Shown: positions 76 to 53,888 of the stretch, piece by piece
Layout: every line of letters starts with the position of its first letter
Position numbering within the stretch: the first letter of the stretch is position 1
Notes under the pieces: generated by a model
Seen by the model: only the letters and a program-made list of their open reading frames with translations
What the model was told of the DNA's origin: nothing
Database searches by the model: none
Origin: Candidatus Omnitrophota bacterium
Lineage (GTDB): Bacteria; Omnitrophota; Gorgyraeia; Aquiviventales; Aquiviventaceae
Direction of reading: 5' to 3'
NCBI GenBank assembly: GCA_023247255.1
Contig: JAHFGV010000005.1
Span: forward strand, 6,067 to 70,066
Length of the DNA stretch: 64,000 nt
Position numbers and translations under genes: made by a program

Positions 76-1071
76 ATGCCTGATCTTCGTGTGAAGATTG
101 GTTCCCTGACGTTACCGAATCCGGTCTTGGTTGCGGCAGGGACCTTTGGTTACGGCCTTGAGTTTACCTCAGCCATCCGCTTGGATCATCTCGGTGCGTT
201 GATTACAAAAACCTTAACCGCAACGCCGCGATCGGGTCATTTGCCCCCCCGTCTTGCCGTTACTCCTTCAGGGATGCTTAACTCTGTTGGGCTGCAGAAC
301 ATTGGACTTGAGGCATTTCTTGAGACGAAGCTTCCACAACTGCGCCGGTATTCGGTGGCAGTGATCGTAAGCGTGTTGGGGGAATCGGCCAAGGAGCTGG
401 CAGAGATGGTCGGACGAATCGATCGTGCCGATGGCGTTTCCGGAGTCGAACTGAATATGTCGTGTCCCAACCTCGAAGAGGGACAGGGGACGGGGGGCGG
501 GGGGCAGGGGGGGGATTCCAGCATTCCCCTGCCCCCTGTCTCGCGCCCCTTGCCCCGTCTTATTGCGCAGGATGCTGAGGCGACGGCTGCGATGGTGCAG
601 GCGGCCCGGGCAAAAACCAGCAAACTTTTGATCGCGAAATTGAGTCCCGACGTCACCGATCTAAGGCCCATCGCGCGAGCGGCCGAGCGGGCAGGGGCCG
701 ATGCCTTGAGCGTGGGGAATACTTTCATCGGGATGAGCCTGGATCCAGAAACCCGTCGGTCCCGTCTGGGTTCCCTCACCGGCGGTTTAAGCGGACCCGC
801 GATTCGTCCGCTTTCACTTTATAGGGTGTGGTATACTGCCCCGGTTGTTCGCATTCCGGTAATCGGTGCAGGGGGTATCGTACAGGCCAAGGATGCCGTT
901 GAGTATTTCCTGGCCGGAGCCAAAGCCGTTGCAGTGGGTACCGCAAACTTTGTGCGACCGGATGCCGCCAGGCAAATCGTCCACGGTATCGAGCGCTACA
1001 TGATTCGACACAAACTAAGCGCCATACACGAACTTTATGGAGCCATCGATTTCCATTCCCCATGGCCGTAA
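76..1071 (+). CDS. pyrD: dihydroorotate dehydrogenase catalytic subunit (PyrD, class 1B-like) carrying a Gly/Pro-rich insertion
   Basis: 331 aa ORF with PyrD-like motifs (KTLTATPRSGHLPPRLA, MLNSVGLQNIGLEAF, NMSCPN, GAGGI). The low-complexity insert GQGTGGGGQGGDSSIPLPPVSRPL is encoded by a GC-rich palindromic element at 478-558. Confidence 0.85.
   Translation: MPDLRVKIGSLTLPNPVLVAAGTFGYGLEFTSAIRLDHLGALITKTLTATPRSGHLPPRLAVTPSGMLNSVGLQNIGLEAFLETKLPQLRRYSVAVIVSVLGESAKELAEMVGRIDRADGVSGVELNMSCPNLEEGQGTGGGGQGGDSSIPLPPVSRPLPRLIAQDAEATAAMVQAARAKTSKLLIAKLSPDVTDLRPIARAAERAGADALSVGNTFIGMSLDPETRRSRLGSLTGGLSGPAIRPLSLYRVWYTAPVVRIPVIGAGGIVQAKDAVEYFLAGAKAVAVGTANFVRPDAARQIVHGIERYMIRHKLSAIHELYGAIDFHSPWP
478..558. 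repeat. G-tract/C-tract palindromic element inserted in frame within pyrD
   Basis: gagggacaggggacggggggcggggggcaggggggg ... cccctgccccctgtctcgcgccccttgcccc. The G-rich arm is followed by a partly complementary C-rich arm. Similar elements occur at 3288-3550 and 15724-15803. Confidence 0.5.
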
Positions 1072-3287: not shown

Positions 3288-3550
3288 TGGGGGGAACGGG
3301 GTGGGAGACGTGGGGCGTGGGAGAACAGATTACAAGAGATAAAAAGTCCTACAACCGGTTTTAAAAAAGGGTTCTTCTGGTTTTGCAGTGGGTAAAAGGA
3401 GCAACACTTCCCTCTCCCAAAGGGAGAGGGAGAAGGGCATGCCCATATATCCCGGAAGCGCCTAAAAAAGAACGGGCGATGTCTAGCTTTCAAGATTTAT
3501 GGAGTGCTATTCGCACTTCCCTCGCCCCCCGCCCCGTTCCCTTTACCCCG
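3288..3550. repeat. split G-rich/C-rich inverted repeat in the nuoJ-nuoK intergenic gap
   Basis: G arm ggggaacggggtgggagacgtggggcgtgggagaacag (3288-3328). Complementary C arm cttccctcgccccccgccccgttccc (3515-3550). The exact 10-mer gggaacgggg / ccccgttccc is shared. The 356-bp nuoJ-K gap is unusual. Confidence 0.4.
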
Positions 3551-3903: not shown

Positions 3904-5816
3904 AGATGCTTTTGTGGATTCCAGGCCTGCCTTTGTTGGCCGCTGCGATATTGCTGCTCGTTGGCAGACGCTTGGGACGCTGGAGTTCTCATGTGGCGAT
4001 TGCCGCCATGAGTGGTTCGGCGGCGTTGGTCTTCTTGATAGGGAGCTGGATTCTCGATGGTCATCGGTTAGGGGTGCGCTGGATATGGTTGTCCGCGCAA
4101 AAGCCACAGTGGTCGCTGGGTCTGGCCGTCGACGGATTGAGCTGGATCATGCTCGTTGTCGTTACCCTGATCGGTACGATGATTATGGTCTACTCAGTGG
4201 GCTACATGCACGCAGACGCACGGTTCAGTCGGTTTTTCGCCTACCTGTGTCTTTTCTGTGCTTCCATGCTGGGGTTGGTGATGGCCGATCATTTTTTACT
4301 GCTCTATGGCTGCTGGGAGCTCGTCGGGCTGTGTTCCTATTTATTGATCAGCTTCTGGTTTGAAAAGCCGGCTGCAGCCGCCGCGGGCCGGAAGGCTTTT
4401 ATCACGACTCGCATTGGGGATACGGGGCTGTTGCTGGGCATCTTTCTCTTAGCCCTGACGGTTGGCGATCTTCGTCTTCAGAATCTGGAAGTTATCCGTG
4501 CGCAGTTGAGCGAACGTTCCTGGCTCTTGACTCTGATCAGTACATTGATTTTTGTGGGAGCCATGGGCAAGTCCGCGCAAATTCCTCTTCATGTCTGGCT
4601 GCCGGATGCGATGGAGGGTCCGACTGCCGTATCCGCCCTCATCCATGCAGCGACGATGGTAGCGGCCGGGGTGTATCTTGTGGCGCGCAGTTTTGTTTTG
4701 TTCACCCCGCAGAGCCTCCAGGGGGTGTTGATCGTCGGACTGCTTACCCATCTTTTGGCCGGGACCGTCGCCCTGACGATGACCGACATCAAAAAGGTCC
4801 TGGCCTACTCGACCATCAGCCAGTTGGGGTTGATGATGACGGCCCTGGGTCTTGGGGCGCAGGCGGCGGCGATGTTTCACCTGTTCACTCATGCGTTCTT
4901 CAAGGCACTTTTGTTTTTGGCGGCCGGCAGCGTCATCCATGCTACCCATCAACAGGATCTTTCCCAGCTCGGTGGACTCTTCCGAAAGATGCGCGCGACG
5001 GCGATTTTGTTTCTCATCGGCGTTCTGTCGATGAGCGGTTTTCCCTTTCTGAGCGGATTCTGGAGCAAGGATGCAATCTTGGCGGCTGCGTTACACGATG
5101 TGCCGGCGCTCTTCTGGACGTTACTGGCTGGGGCGGTTTTGACAGCGAGTTATACATTCCGGTTGTTTCTGCGGTGCTTTCACGGCGAGTCGGCAGACGC
5201 AAGAGGGCACACAGCACACAGCGTGCATGAATCGCCGGCTATCATGCTTATACCCATGGCGGTCTTGGCTCTTGGAGCGGTCTTCGCCGGTCTTTTAGGA
5301 TCGCCGTGGCTGCATCAGCCGATCTTTCATCTGCTCGGTTCAAAACGCCTGCATGAAGGGATCGATGTGCCGATTTTGCTTTTGTCGAGCGGCGCTGTGG
5401 CTGTCGGATTCGCTCTGGCGTGGCTTTCGGGTTTCAAACGCCAGCTGCACCTGCCTGAATCCTTGCGTCCGTTGGGTCAATTTTTCTATCGGCTTTCGGT
5501 GAACAAATACTATGTGGATGAGGCTTATGACCGCTGGATCGTTCAGCCGTTTCAAGCAGCGACCCGCCGATTGTCCCAGTTTGATCAGCGCGTCATTGAT
5601 GGCAGCGTCAATGGGGTCGCCGAGTTGGGCTGGAAGCTCGGTCAGGGGAAAGAGCGTTTTGACGCCAAGGTTATCGATCGGCTCGTCAACGGCATTGCCA
5701 GTTCCACGCGCCGGATGGCGATGGGGCTTCGGCTGATTCAAACCGGTGTGATTCAAAACTACCTGCTGGCTGTTGTGGTCTCAGTGGTTGTGTTCGCCTG
5801 GCTGTTGCGTCCATAA
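3900..5816 (+). CDS. nuoL: NADH-quinone oxidoreductase subunit L
   Basis: 638 aa with NuoL/Mrp antiporter-like motifs (WLPDAMEGPTAVSALIHAATMVAAGVYL). Overlaps the nuoK stop. Confidence 0.9.
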   Translation: MKMLLWIPGLPLLAAAILLLVGRRLGRWSSHVAIAAMSGSAALVFLIGSWILDGHRLGVRWIWLSAQKPQWSLGLAVDGLSWIMLVVVTLIGTMIMVYSVGYMHADARFSRFFAYLCLFCASMLGLVMADHFLLLYGCWELVGLCSYLLISFWFEKPAAAAAGRKAFITTRIGDTGLLLGIFLLALTVGDLRLQNLEVIRAQLSERSWLLTLISTLIFVGAMGKSAQIPLHVWLPDAMEGPTAVSALIHAATMVAAGVYLVARSFVLFTPQSLQGVLIVGLLTHLLAGTVALTMTDIKKVLAYSTISQLGLMMTALGLGAQAAAMFHLFTHAFFKALLFLAAGSVIHATHQQDLSQLGGLFRKMRATAILFLIGVLSMSGFPFLSGFWSKDAILAAALHDVPALFWTLLAGAVLTASYTFRLFLRCFHGESADARGHTAHSVHESPAIMLIPMAVLALGAVFAGLLGSPWLHQPIFHLLGSKRLHEGIDVPILLLSSGAVAVGFALAWLSGFKRQLHLPESLRPLGQFFYRLSVNKYYVDEAYDRWIVQPFQAATRRLSQFDQRVIDGSVNGVAELGWKLGQGKERFDAKVIDRLVNGIASSTRRMAMGLRLIQTGVIQNYLLAVVVSVVVFAWLLRP

Positions 5817-5857
5817 ATTCCGCAGTTTTTAGCAGGATGCTAAAAGACCCACGGGAT

Positions 5858-6300
5858 GCTAGAGTGCCTAACATAATGATCGCATGGTCGCGCTGGGCGT
5901 AATTGCTTCGATGCGCAAGACGCCAGGAGGAAGCCGTACTGATCCATAGAAGTACGGTGACGACGAGCAACGCAGCGCGGCGAAGCAATTCCGCCCAGCC
6001 CTTAGGGTTGCACTGAAAGATGGCCATCTGCTGCGTCGTTCCTCCTCGGCGTAGCGCTCCTTCGGCTACGCCTTCGTCGTCACTCCTTGCATCTGGGCCA
6101 TCTTTCAGTGCAACGCGGCCATGTGCTCATTATGTTAGGCACTCTTAGGCTGCTCAAAAAGGTGCGAGATGCAAGGCGCAGCTCGATTCGGCTGAGTCCT
6201 TTGACTATCGCTCAGGACTCAGCCCTGAGCAACGTCGAAGGGCTGAGGAGGCGCGTACTTTCAAGTACGCTGACGAAGCCGTCAGGCATACAACGCAGCA
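5858..6300. repeat. nested long inverted-repeat (MITE-like) element in the nuoL-nuoM gap
   Basis: 5858-5890 (agagtgcctaacataatgatcgcatggtcgcg) is the reverse complement of 6117-6148. 6005-6030 pairs with 6090-6118. The centre ggcgtagcgctccttcggctacgcc is palindromic. Further hairpins lie at 5893-6000 and 6190-6225. Confidence 0.5.
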
Positions 6301-6340
6301 GATGTGTCTTTTTCAGCAGCCTGCTTAGGGAGATGCGCAC

Positions 6341-7792
6341 ATGCTAAGTGTTTTGTTACTGTGTCCACTCATCGGGATGTTGGTGGTCTTGGCCTTGCCC
6401 AAGACAGCCGTGCGGGCCATTCGGTTTGTCGCTTTGCTCGCAAGCGGGCTGGCCTTGGCTTTTGCGATCCAGTTGTTCCAGTTCTTCCGGCCACAAGAGG
6501 CAATCCAGTTAGTCGAGCGGATAGTCTGGATCCCGCAGATGCGCATTTTCTATCACGTCGGTGTGGATGGGCTTAGCCTGCCTCTTGTGTTTTTAACCGT
6601 TCTGTTAGGGTTCATCGCCTGTCTGGCTTCCGCCTCCATCACCGAGCGTCAGAAAGAGTACTACGCCCTGTACCTGCTGTTGGAGATGGGGATGCTGGGC
6701 ACGTTCATGGCATTGGATTTTTTCTTGTTCTATGTCTTCTGGGAAGTGGTGTTGGTGCCGATGTATTTCTTGATCGGCATCTGGGGCGGCGGTCGTCGGG
6801 AATACTCGGCTTTTAAGTTTTTTGTCTACACCCTCGCCGGCAGCCTGGCGATATTGTTGGCCATCTTGATGCTTTATTTCCGCACGGGGACCTTTGATAT
6901 GGTTGCCCTTGCGCAGATGGGACCGTTGCTAGAGCCGGATCTCCAACGACTGCTTTTTGTGGCGTTCTTCTTGGGATTCGCCATCAAGGTTCCGGTTTTT
7001 CCATTCCACACCTGGCTTCCGGATGCGCACGTCGATGCCCCCACCCCGATCAGCGTCCTGTTGGCCGGGGTGTTGCTGAAAATGGGAGGCTACGGCTTTT
7101 TCCGTATCGCCTATCCTATCTGCCCTGAGGGGGCGCAATGGGCAGCAGGGGCGATGGCCGTTTTGGGGATGATCAACATTGTCTACGGCGCTTTCGTTGC
7201 GATGGCCCAGACCGATTTTAAGAAACTCGTCGCCTACTCTTCCGTTTCCCATATGGGATTTGTCCTGCTTGGGCTGGCGAGCCTTCAGACGGAAGGCGTC
7301 AACGGGGCATTGTTGCAGATGTTCAATCACGGCACGATCACCGGTGGCATGTTCTTGTTAGTCGGCGTGCTCTATGATCGGGCGCACACCCGAGACCTCA
7401 ATGCCTTCGGCGGGCTGGGCGCGCACATGCCTAAGTTTTCAGGATTGCTTATTTTTTTCGGGCTGGCTTCTTTAGGGCTTCCGGGTTTGAGTGGATTTGT
7501 GGGGGAATTTTTGTCTCTGCTGGGGGCCTTCGGGGTCTGGCGATGGCAGACGGTCGTCTCAGTGCTAGGAATCGTCGTCGCGGCGGCCTATATCCTCACG
7601 GCGATTCAGCGAGTCTTGCTGGGGCCGCCAAACGAACGCTGGAAAAATCTGCCGGATGTCAATCCGAGAGAGATGGCCAGCTTGATCCCGCTCGTTGTGC
7701 TTATCTTGGCGTTGGGGGTTTATCCTTTGTTATTGATCGATCTTCAGGATGGAGCGGTTCAGCAGTTTATCGCCCACGTCAAAGGACCGTAG
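6341..7792 (+). CDS. nuoM: NADH-quinone oxidoreductase subunit M
   Basis: 483 aa, NuoM-like (FPFHTWLPDAHVDAPTPISVLLAGVLLKMGGYGF). Confidence 0.9.
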   Translation: MLSVLLLCPLIGMLVVLALPKTAVRAIRFVALLASGLALAFAIQLFQFFRPQEAIQLVERIVWIPQMRIFYHVGVDGLSLPLVFLTVLLGFIACLASASITERQKEYYALYLLLEMGMLGTFMALDFFLFYVFWEVVLVPMYFLIGIWGGGRREYSAFKFFVYTLAGSLAILLAILMLYFRTGTFDMVALAQMGPLLEPDLQRLLFVAFFLGFAIKVPVFPFHTWLPDAHVDAPTPISVLLAGVLLKMGGYGFFRIAYPICPEGAQWAAGAMAVLGMINIVYGAFVAMAQTDFKKLVAYSSVSHMGFVLLGLASLQTEGVNGALLQMFNHGTITGGMFLLVGVLYDRAHTRDLNAFGGLGAHMPKFSGLLIFFGLASLGLPGLSGFVGEFLSLLGAFGVWRWQTVVSVLGIVVAAAYILTAIQRVLLGPPNERWKNLPDVNPREMASLIPLVVLILALGVYPLLLIDLQDGAVQQFIAHVKGP

Positions 7793-23768: not shown

Positions 23769-23842
23769 GGGGGCGTAGCTCAATTGGTTAGAGTGGCGGC
23801 CTGTCGAGCCGTAGGTTGCGGGTTCGAGCCCCGTCGCCCCCG
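23769..23842 (+). tRNA. tRNA-Asp (anticodon GTC)
   Basis: Acceptor GGGGGCG/CGCCCCC, D arm GCTC-AATTGGTTA-GAGT, anticodon stem GCGGC/GCCGT with loop CTGTCGA, T arm GCGGG-TTCGAGC-CCCGT. Confidence 0.85.
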
Positions 23843-53172: not shown

Positions 53173-53888
53173 CGCGCGTCAGGGTTCTTTGGGGTGTGAT
53201 CGCGTAGGGTACGTGGTGGGATGACAATTCGAAACGACGCTCCGAGTTCAGCGACCTAAGCTCGCGTGATGGCGGGGATGGTCCCTGAACCCCTGTCCCA
53301 CACGCAACGCCGCGTGTAGGACCGGGCCGGGAAGGAAACGACTCGGCCTCCTCGTGTTCGGAAAGGAGACGGCAGGCTGGAGTATCGTCAAGCCAGCTTC
53401 TCTTTCCACACGAGGAGCTGGCTTGTTTCGTCACTGAGGGACGGTACCCGATGCAGGAACAACGTGTGACGCTCTGGTGCAAGGTGTTGGGTCGGCTGGT
53501 TGAGGTGGTCATCGCCAGGAATCACCATGCCCAGCCACCAGTCCCAGGGGTCCCTGAAGGCTGGAAGGTAACGGAGTGTCTGGAGAAAGACACGCCGTGT
53601 TTTGGCAAGGGCTGTCCGTTCACTACGGATGGTGGAGAGTCCCCCTTTGGGGAGGCGGGCGAGCTGCCCGATCTCTCCTCTGAGTCGTTCGATCCGCTCG
53701 CTGAACCAGGGTCTGAGGGAAAGGGTAGTTGACCCCACCACCTGTCTGTCAAGGCAGCTCCGTTGTTCCACGCTGACAGGATGCCTTGATGGACGTGACA
53801 GGGAATCGGACACGATGTTTCGGTATACAGTAAAAAGATTAGTAGGCACGTCCAAGACCGCCGTCTGCGGTTCCAGCCAGGTGGTGCG

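Follow-up and report, generated by a model that had tools for sequence, protein, structure and literature searches.

An in-frame hairpin of heptanucleotide repeats within pyrD of a Candidatus Omnitrophota bacterium

How a GC-rich palindrome comes to lie, in frame, inside a gene of pyrimidine synthesis is the question raised by pyrD in a stretch of 64,000 nt from a Candidatus Omnitrophota bacterium (assembly GCA_023247255.1, contig JAHFGV010000005.1, positions 6,067 to 70,066). The whole of this stretch is referred to below as the window, and coordinates are those of the window unless a locus is named. An initial annotation of its sequence had placed the palindrome at 478-558 and likened it to elements that colonise coding sequences. 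The explanation that we consider probable is that simple-repeat hairpins form a genome-wide class, of which the pyrD feature is a copy situated in a permissive coding slot, shaped by mutation and filtered by selection. The architecture of this class is an inverted pair of heptanucleotide arrays with about four to five units per arm and the G-richer arm first, and in the genome of the window its members lie mostly between co-transcribed genes.

The pyrD element was found to comprise 81 nt on the forward strand (480-560), beginning in frame two codons 3′ of the SCPN motif (463-474, + strand, located by alignment to 1ep1_A) and consisting of five heptamers (35 nt), an 11-nt loop and five further heptamers (35 nt). 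The 5′ arm (480-514) is composed of the G-rich heptamers GGGACAG, GGGACGG, GGGGCGG, GGGGCAG and GGGGGGG (consensus GGGRCRG), the loop of the predicted fold (515-525) is ATTCCAGCATT, and the inverted 3′ arm (526-560) is composed of the C-rich heptamers CCCCTGC, CCCCTGT, CTCGCGC, CCCTTGC and CCCGTCT. The heptameric structure of the arms is an addition to the initial annotation, which gave the correct length and set the element two nucleotides to the left of its natural register; its peptide was displaced by one residue, 478-558 encoding EGQGTGGGGQGGDSSIPLPPVSRPLPR. A peptide predicted for this part of PyrD is GQGTGGGGQGGDSSIPLPPVSR. Tandem Repeats Finder (TRF) reported a period of 7 at 480-513 with 4.4 copies and 87-89% matches, and an inverted-repeat search yielded arms of 31 nt (480-510 and 526-556) that were 77% complementary and separated by 15 nt. 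Alignment of the two arms gave 28 Watson-Crick pairs, four G.U pairs, two A.C mismatches and one transversion. The predicted RNA fold of 472-564 (93 nt) reached -64.7 kcal/mol, compared with -46.7 ± 4.1 kcal/mol for dinucleotide shuffles (z -4.4), and the DNA fold reached -28.4 compared with -20.3 in shuffles (z -3.1). None of the 200 shuffles folded as well as the element, either as RNA or as DNA, and the claim of a palindromic repeat lying in frame inside the pyrD open reading frame (ORF) was borne out.

A run of eight G residues at 507-514 of the 5′ arm, a potential hotspot of slippage or sequencing error, was the same in the independent Logan contig L001 (SRR14366787). This contig is nucleotide-identical to the window across pyrD, and the insert is therefore not an artefact of assembly; an identical PyrD protein occurs on three Logan contigs, of which L001 was the one compared as DNA. 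The element consists of the two arms and the 11-nt loop, with no duplication evident at its ends, and its insertion boundaries cannot be fixed exactly. At gathering threshold no Rfam match was obtained on any heptamer hairpin of the window, and a terminator and promoter scan gave no hit of either kind at the pyrD element and no terminator-like site at the other window heptamer hairpins. An internal attenuator in pyrD was considered and rejected: the scan was empty at the element, the tail GUCUUAUU is only weakly U-rich and orthologous cassettes have no U-tract.

The host gene pyrD (76-1071, + strand) encodes the catalytic subunit, 331 residues long, of a class 1B dihydroorotate dehydrogenase (DHOD), as judged from its ORF, from PF01180 and from class 1B DHOD (DHODB) structures. 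The match to PF01180 (208 bits, 2.2e-61) was broken in two around the insert. The PyrDB structures 1ep1 (Lactococcus lactis) and 5ue9 matched PyrD by sequence with an E-value of about 1e-66, and an AlphaFold model of PyrD (predicted template modelling score, pTM, 0.79) was similar to both, with a target-normalised template modelling (TM) score of 0.85. The protein thus has the DHO_dh fold together with a cysteine in SCPN, as expected of class 1B DHODs. This Cys130 aligns to the catalytic Cys135 of L. lactis PyrDB (1ep1), the catalytic role of this cysteine being well established for class 1 DHODs, and S129, C130, P131 and N132 were invariant in the alignment of PyrD homologues.

Immediately beyond this motif the homologues diverge in length. 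Compared with 1ep1, residues 138-163 of PyrD, the first of which is eight residues past Cys130, replace the three residues 143-145. The homologue set consisted of the 120 best PyrD matches (60-100% identity), the named ones being metagenome-assembled genomes (MAGs) of Candidatus Omnitrophota, and in 116 of the 120 the spacer between SCPNxxx and (M/L)(V/I)AQD exceeded the baseline of six residues, always at the identical slot. The spacer of the window PyrD has 29 residues compared with six in insert-less members of the clade, so that the short loop after SCPN has indeed been replaced and the insertion was confirmed by alignment with orthologues, with a net gain of about 23 residues in place of the 27 first assumed. 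Spacers ranged from 6 to 50 residues (up to +44); the most frequent length was 27 residues (n=21), which is +21 residues, 63 nt or nine heptamers, and a second mode was found at 30 residues. The extra segments varied in sequence and length, and residue conservation within the insert was nil. A heptameric periodicity was nevertheless visible at the protein level: in inserts of at least 20 residues (n=87), identity at a lag of seven residues was 23.7% compared with 8.3% in shuffled inserts (z=24), and no other lag was comparably enriched (the next was lag 2, z=3.1). Nested residue pairs with reverse-complementable codons numbered 7.0 compared with 5.5 ± 0.07 in shuffles, and the peptides, such as RLEAGGSR...EPRASSLQP and AECGVRSAE...FRIPHSEFRIP, have the look of a translated palindrome.

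The pyrD DNA of six relatives (L162-L165, L082 and L084) was available, while the cassette of the closest relative, P0002, is known as protein only. The inserts of L162-L165 and L082 were heptamer hairpins of differing unit sequence (z -2.8 to -7.2). The L165 cassette consists of GGATTGC ×5 and GCAATCC ×4 (z -7.2), that of L164 of GGCTCAA and CTTCAGC units (z -4.7) and that of L082 of AGGGCTC and GAGCCCC units; L162 and L163 carry G-rich units resembling those of the window, and L084 has a weak, apparently decayed copy. The PyrD of L008, an Omnitrophota MAG at 47% identity, has 11 additional residues at the slot, and in 151 loci of other lineages among the matches listed the spacing was at baseline, with no insert at the slot. 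Judged from these comparisons, the slot is old and clade-wide, with contents that turn over, and is not a recent insertion private to the genome of the window.

These comparisons also bear on the least likely of the explanations that we considered, namely that the insert is a lineage-specific functional protein loop or a G-quadruplex (G4) regulatory element in which the palindrome is incidental. Lying beside the catalytic loop, the insert might in principle influence gating, and the 5′ arm fits the motif G3+N1-7 ×4 on direct reading, with five G3+ tracts at 7-nt spacing across 480-514, as in the G-rich heptamer repeats of Xanthomonas and Nostoc that form G4 structures in vitro (PMC4692102). 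A functional loop is, however, largely refuted by the absence of any conserved residue in the insert. G4 formation does not hold as a general explanation, since G-richness is lacking in most orthologous cassettes, whose units include GGATTGC, GGCTCAA, GGAGTGC and GTTCGGA; the same element family is also present in non-coding DNA. In pyrD itself the G-arm is paired with a C-arm, with which G4 formation would have to compete. The G4 potential pointed out initially is therefore present as a motif, whereas G-richness is not a conserved property of the slot, and the potential of the pyrD element is incidental. A pyrimidine-sensing role of the G/C composition was rejected on the grounds that other cassettes are not G/C-rich.

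The element is not alone in its genome. A lag scan of the 64-kb window detected seven arrays of period 7, none at lags 5, 6, 8 and 9 and one at lag 10, and at least seven heptamer-hairpin loci could be recognised. The pattern GGGN4GGGN4GGGN4GGG, with at most one mismatch, was matched 17 times compared with 0.82 ± 0.9 expected, and all 17 matches were confined to 479-556, 3291-3549 and 15727-15757. This confirmed the proposal that the pyrD element shares a family with the elements at 3288-3550 and 15724-15803, as matches were obtained at these three loci only. The three G/C-type copies could be aligned in register, and column identity among G-type copies was 63%. The copy at 3288-3550 (+ strand, nuoJ-nuoK gap), recognised by its inverted repeat, by the pattern matches and by this alignment, has its G-arm at about 3288-3324 and its C-arm at about 3511-3550. 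Between the two arms lies an unrelated filling of 188 nt, which gives the impression of a later insertion into the loop of a hairpin that already existed. A BLAST search with this filling gave no second copy among the window and the collected loci. The filling (3327-3510) also holds a small hairpin of its own at about 3409-3440. The copy at 15724-15803 (+ strand), just 5′ of atpD, consists of a G-arm, a T-rich loop and a C-arm; it was identified by pattern matches and alignment, and its 6-mer sharing with the pyrD element was 0.33, compared with a background median of about 0.03.

Besides the two further G/C-type copies, several A/T-richer types belong to the family; they lie on the forward strand in gaps between nuo and atp operon genes. 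Inverted repeats, TRF and lag-7 arrays identified a TGTCATG/CATGACA hairpin in the pyrE-nuoJ gap (2452-2629), a hairpin of the GATTGTC/ATTTTAG type in the atpF-atpH gap (11768-11899, placed with the aid of the ORF map) and an ATTGTCG/CGACAAT hairpin 3′ of the tRNA at 19140-19213 (19284-19360). A weaker hairpin of the TTTGCTA type was found at the atpA-atpG junction (14024-14135), where TRF gave a period of 7 at 14107-14135 and the arms could be paired. A probable second coding-slot element lies in frame inside atpG (14137-15060) at 14733-14795, where TRF and the sequence revealed two runs of about four heptamers, CAGCASA followed by TCAGCRA; the encoded gamma subunit is longer than PDB 2qe7_G by about 12 residues at this site.

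Two regions of the nuo and atp operons were observed in addition. A small toxin-antitoxin-like pair lies inserted in the atp operon between atpG and atpD (15099-15680) and is directly followed by the G/C-type hairpin at 15724-15803; its antitoxin is of the MazE/AbrB type (PF04014, 25.8 bits, above cut-off) and its ParE-like ORF scored 19 bits, below cut-off. The 525-nt nuoL-nuoM spacer (5816-6341) contains nested inverted repeats, the outer arms of which (5861-5895 and 6111-6145, 35 nt, 89% complementary) have the look of a MITE (miniature inverted-repeat transposable element). No further copy of this spacer was found by BLAST among the window and the collected loci, and the relatives L162 and L163 have almost no nuoL-nuoM spacer.

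Further slots were sought in the called genes of the 10-kb flanks of L162-L165. Of the four genomes, L162, L164 and L165 had an in-frame heptamer insert following ...EWP of carA, which L163 lacked, and all four had one in carB that separates YYYSTYE.P from KKKVMVLGGGPNRIGQG; heptamer pairs at the pyrD/pyrF junction were present in two. The carA and carB inserts were located at 4080-4145 and 7643-7720 in L162, 7996-8082 in L163, 1865-1936 and 7917-7993 in L164, and 1341-1423 and 7428-7506 in L165. In carA of L165 the two arrays were not complementary to each other. The inserts often shared their unit type with the pyrD cassette of their own genome: in L164, carB, pyrD and the pyrD-pyrF spacer all contained GGCTCAA-like units, and G-rich units were found throughout in L162, L163 and the window. 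This recurrence of unit type across the slots of a genome was significant (p=0.007) when the best match within each genome was tested by permutation. A Mann-Whitney test that compared 6-mer sharing within a genome with sharing at a common slot did not reach significance, because unit types are also common to different genomes. The initial annotation had reasoned that close relatives carrying the same residues, with no repeat signature elsewhere in the genome, would point to a lineage-specific loop; the relatives were instead found to carry different cassettes, with unit types that recur within each genome.

If such arrays lie in coding sequence, their length and frame become critical. Homologues from gene calling are in frame by construction, and ten cases were therefore considered that had been ascertained independently of the insert, namely pyrD of L082, L084 and L085 (found via the C-terminal half, among the matches listed), and three carA and four carB inserts encountered as neighbours. 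All ten were in frame and open, the chance of which is about (1/3)^10. Since 7 cannot be divided by 3, all three frames are used as one heptamer follows another, and a heptamer together with its complement must be free of stop codons in three frames. Nine of 14 coding-slot elements were open in all three frames, whereas the A/T-rich intergenic types of the window were closed in all three. The insert would then be transcribed and translated with pyrD, adding about 23 residues rich in Gly and Pro. In the AlphaFold model, the predicted local distance difference test (pLDDT) was below 50 for residues 135-158, and residues 128-162 formed a coil inside a confident TIM barrel; the insert is thus predicted to be a disordered stretch projecting from the loop after the catalytic cysteine, tolerated and not needed. 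Translational bypass of the insert and its intein-like removal were also considered as candidates and rejected, every allele seen being in frame and open.

Phase variation was weighed on the same evidence. In neuO of Escherichia coli K1, a variable number tandem repeat (VNTR) of heptanucleotides lies in the coding sequence, and only those unit numbers that keep the frame give a full-length protein (PMC13001214, PMC8653822). By analogy, pyrD, and in relatives carA and carB, could be contingency genes in which gain or loss of 7 nt switches pyrimidine synthesis. The unit length is indeed not divisible by 3, arrays as regular as these, perfect or nearly so, are prone to slippage, one arm contains the G8 run, and the coding slots of the relatives examined fall in pyrimidine genes. 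No out-of-frame allele was found, however, among the 120 homologues and the ten independent cases, and arrays of four to five units are short. The array of neuO is, moreover, a single direct one at the 5′ end, whereas that of pyrD is an inverted pair in the middle of the gene. We regard a contingency switch at this locus as very improbable.

The contents of the slot were found to change far faster than pyrD itself. In pairs of proteins with flanks that were 94-97% identical, the inserts were 14-50% identical and often of another unit type or length, and insert-less and truncated alleles were nested among insert-bearing ones at 84-89% flank identity. Two sequence pairs suggest how such changes may arise. 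The flanks of L167 and L168 are 95.5% nucleotide-identical, and their first arms read GGATTGC ×4 and GGAGTGC ×4; the T-to-G difference is repeated in every unit of arm 1 and arm 2 is altered at the matching position. To judge from this pattern the difference is a case of concerted evolution, by which unit change at a neutral rate would mimic hyper-divergence. The second pair, L082 and L166, has flanks that are 96% identical, with about 99% identity in the left 350 nt and more divergence in the right flank. Their cassettes are unrelated, being of the GGGCTCA and GTTCGGA types and of differing lengths, and six mismatches are packed into the 50 nt preceding the insert. Such a mosaic agrees with replacement through recombination.

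An actively mobile, non-autonomous element could also account for replaced cassettes. Such an element would resemble a MITE, or REP sequences (repetitive, extragenic and palindromic) and the hairpins formed of them (REPINs), with a transposase repeatedly targeting hairpin-prone slots. The recurrence of unit types in distant genomes and among the many slots of a single genome, the nested or split copy at 3288-3550 and the replacement of cassettes between near-identical genes would all be expected of it. Yet the copies have no common unique consensus beyond the heptamer, as is evident from their column identity of 63%, and neither terminal repeats nor a target duplication could be clearly made out; no transposase was seen, though none was searched for. 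The difference between L167 and L168 is a concerted point change and not a replacement, and the raised divergence beside the swapped cassette of L082/L166, with its mosaic flanks, favours homologous recombination over transposition. We consider active mobility unlikely, and the pyrD element is, by the look of its sequence, not a long-consensus mobile element.

The wider census covered 2.07 Mb, consisting of the window and the loci L002-L168 from many phyla, with insert-less PyrD loci reused as controls. Perfect arrays of period 7 numbered 38, compared with two to six for each of the periods 5, 6, 8 and 9, one of period 10 and none of period 11, and the unit number of the period-7 arrays peaked at four (19 of 38). 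The 5′ arm was the G-richer one in 30 of 34 detected inverted heptamer pairs (about 26 of 29 when counted as unique pairs without ties), irrespective of strand, whereas ordinary perfect hairpins in the same DNA (n=124) showed no polarity, the G-richer arm being split 45:59. Inverted heptamer pairs were also present in MAGs labelled Nitrospirota, Desulfuromonadales, Sumerlaeota, Bacteroidales, Acidobacteriota and Planctomycetia.

Mismatches in the stems were counted in 23 heptamer hairpins (window, L082 and L162-L168), in which they are repeated from unit to unit and are not independent events. On the sense strand, transition mismatches of intergenic copies were G.U in 22 instances and A.C in nine. 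In coding copies this bias was reversed (A.C 37, G.U 11), which is suggestive of a weakened mRNA stem inside genes. These counts touch on the possibility that the hairpins are selected nucleic-acid elements, either RNA stem-loops for mRNA processing or stability in operons or arrays bound by a heptamer-reading protein, an explanation to which we give some weight while holding it to be rather unlikely. It would account for a hairpin potential that outlasts complete turnover of the unit sequence, for an insert of preferred size kept by nearly all members of the clade, for intergenic copies between co-transcribed nuo and atp genes with stems that prefer G.U to A.C, and for the four-unit preference with its fixed polarity. 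It does not sit well with the weakening of the mRNA stem in coding copies, with the insert-less and truncated alleles nested among insert-bearing ones, or with several unrelated unit types occurring together in one genome. The non-independence of the mismatch counts and the absence of any Rfam match also weigh against it.

According to the explanation that we prefer, a mutational hairpin class filtered by selection, replication slippage would keep the units within an arm alike, and template switching at the quasipalindrome would keep the two arms complementary to each other. Quasipalindrome correction is an established mutational mechanism. By homologous recombination or gene conversion, entire cassettes would be exchanged among strains and among slots, deletion mediated by the hairpin would remove cassettes, and selection would act as a filter only, demanding a length that is a multiple of 3 and the absence of stop codons. 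Several observations weigh against this explanation. A neutral, deletion-prone hairpin would be expected to be lost frequently, yet the insert-less spacer was seen in merely four of 120 homologues, and together with the sharp preferred size this hints at selection or at a bias of insertion or regeneration. Neither the preference for about four units per arm nor the strand-independent polarity with the G-arm first is predicted by slippage alone. It leaves the origin of new slots without an account; no target-site duplication was identified, nor a transposase, for which no aimed search was made. Translation and disorder of the insert were deduced and not observed, and the steps of template switching and recombination are based on patterns in two sequence pairs.

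A bolder proposal, which we put forward tentatively and regard as possible though doubtful, is that inverted pairs of about four heptamers with the G-arm first constitute a distinct, uncharacterised class of elements in many uncultured phyla. They would be made or maintained by a specific mechanism, such as a heptamer-reading or heptamer-writing protein or structure-directed fold-back synthesis, and would occupy fixed slots (pyrD, carA, carB and perhaps atpG) in which the cassettes are rewritten within species. If true, this would be a new kind of fast-evolving, structure-preserving insert and not ordinary slippage debris.

The element was further compared with repeats from other bacteria. The units of the STRRs, the short, tandemly repeated repetitive sequences of heterocystous cyanobacteria, are said to have been described by Mazel in 1990 as CCCCAGT, TTGGTCA or CAACAGT; in this strict sense the present elements are not STRRs, their units being GGGRCRG, TGTCATG and ATTGTCG and the named homologues being Omnitrophota MAGs. 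STRR heptamers also occur, as indicated by the title of Vioque 1997 cited in PMC2858038, within the essential RNase P RNA gene of cyanobacteria that form heterocysts. Their position there is reported to be structurally tolerant and the repeats to vary between strains; the host is an RNA gene without the reading-frame constraint of pyrD. Rickettsia palindromic elements (RPEs), which are reported to go back to Ogata et al. in 2000 and to Claverie and Ogata in 2003, are said to be in-frame, translated palindromes at surface positions of housekeeping gene products, found also in non-coding DNA. RPE families have a recognisable consensus of about 100-150 bp and evolve along with the host gene. The pyrD element resembles them as an in-frame palindromic repeat in a coding gene, and to this extent the initial likening to Rickettsia was justified. 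It does not belong to an RPE family, as nothing but the 7-nt motif and the architecture is common to its copies, and its inserts do not diverge in step with the host.

Heptanucleotide arrays are well represented in the literature. According to a summary of Mrazek 2007 (PMC4679880), heptanucleotides are the most abundant long simple sequence repeats (LSSRs) in many bacteria, and individual repeats include GGGAATC in Xanthomonas, GGGGA(C/T)T in Nostoc (PMC4692102) and TAACTGA in Beggiatoaceae (PMC4679880). Like arrays of the LSSR/STRR type, the pyrD element consists of head-to-tail 7-nt units in short, dispersed arrays, with an excess of heptamers and a preference for about four units; the window family likewise is mostly intergenic, lies near gene ends and has G-rich variants with G4 potential. 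It differs in other unit sequences, in inverted pairs that form hairpins with the G-rich arm first, and in in-frame slots of core enzymes. The nearest published description that we found is that of 49 elements of four GGACCGG units in Geobacter metallireducens, in genes and between genes (PMC2700814). These are likewise composed of four GC-rich heptamers in intragenic and intergenic positions, but they belong to another phylum and were described in an annotation note as presumed regulatory RNA, with no analysis of hairpin, frame, slot or turnover. REP sequences, bacterial interspersed mosaic elements (BIMEs) and REPINs are short, imperfect, multi-copy palindromes between co-transcribed genes that may form stem-loops in mRNA (PMC3116915, PMC3733652, PMC8266576). 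REPs are extragenic, with GTAG or CGTC heads, REP-associated tyrosine transposases (RAYTs) and no tandem heptamers, whereas the window family is built of heptamers and its pyrD copy lies inside an ORF, the other members being intergenic. CGTC is present at 556-559 of the pyrD element. In the literature searched, which covered few subscription journals, we found no description of polar inverted heptamer pairs that occupy conserved slots in frame and whose cassettes turn over. The impression is of a general phenomenon that has been little characterised.

The window opens with a pyrimidine operon, to which pyrD belongs; the nuo and atp operons come next, and all are on the forward strand. Downstream of pyrD lie pyrF (1062-1832) and pyrE (ending at 2422), then nuoJ-N and the atp genes. 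No pyrK-like gene adjoining the class 1B pyrD was found in the genome of the window or in seven relatives examined. One or two genes for PilZ-domain proteins were located directly 5′ of pyrD in the genome of the window and in all seven relatives examined (545-913 in L001, 9291-9992 in L162, 9637-9987 in L163, 9555-9908 in L164, 9083-9802 in L165, 226-591 in L166, 649-1367 in L167 and 81-428 in L168). Elsewhere in the window, a molybdenum/tungsten cofactor riboswitch (RF01055, 61.6 bits) was detected at 53228-53385 (+ strand), and the tRNAs are at 19140-19213 and 23769-23842.

To our knowledge, in-frame palindromic inserts are known mainly from Rickettsia, and heptanucleotide repeats were recognised between 1990 and 2007 as the commonest long repeats of bacteria without a mechanism or a role being assigned to them. 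The pyrD locus unites the two, as polar hairpins of heptamer arrays in essential genes, at slots conserved across a clade, with cassettes that appear to undergo concerted mutation as well as replacement between genes of about 96% identity. In practical terms, such inserts split domain matches and inflate the apparent divergence of marker genes in uncultured phyla. With hundreds of alleles at one slot, the locus offers a tractable natural system for measuring slippage, quasipalindrome correction and recombination, and could show whether hairpins of this kind are selfish, structural or regulatory.

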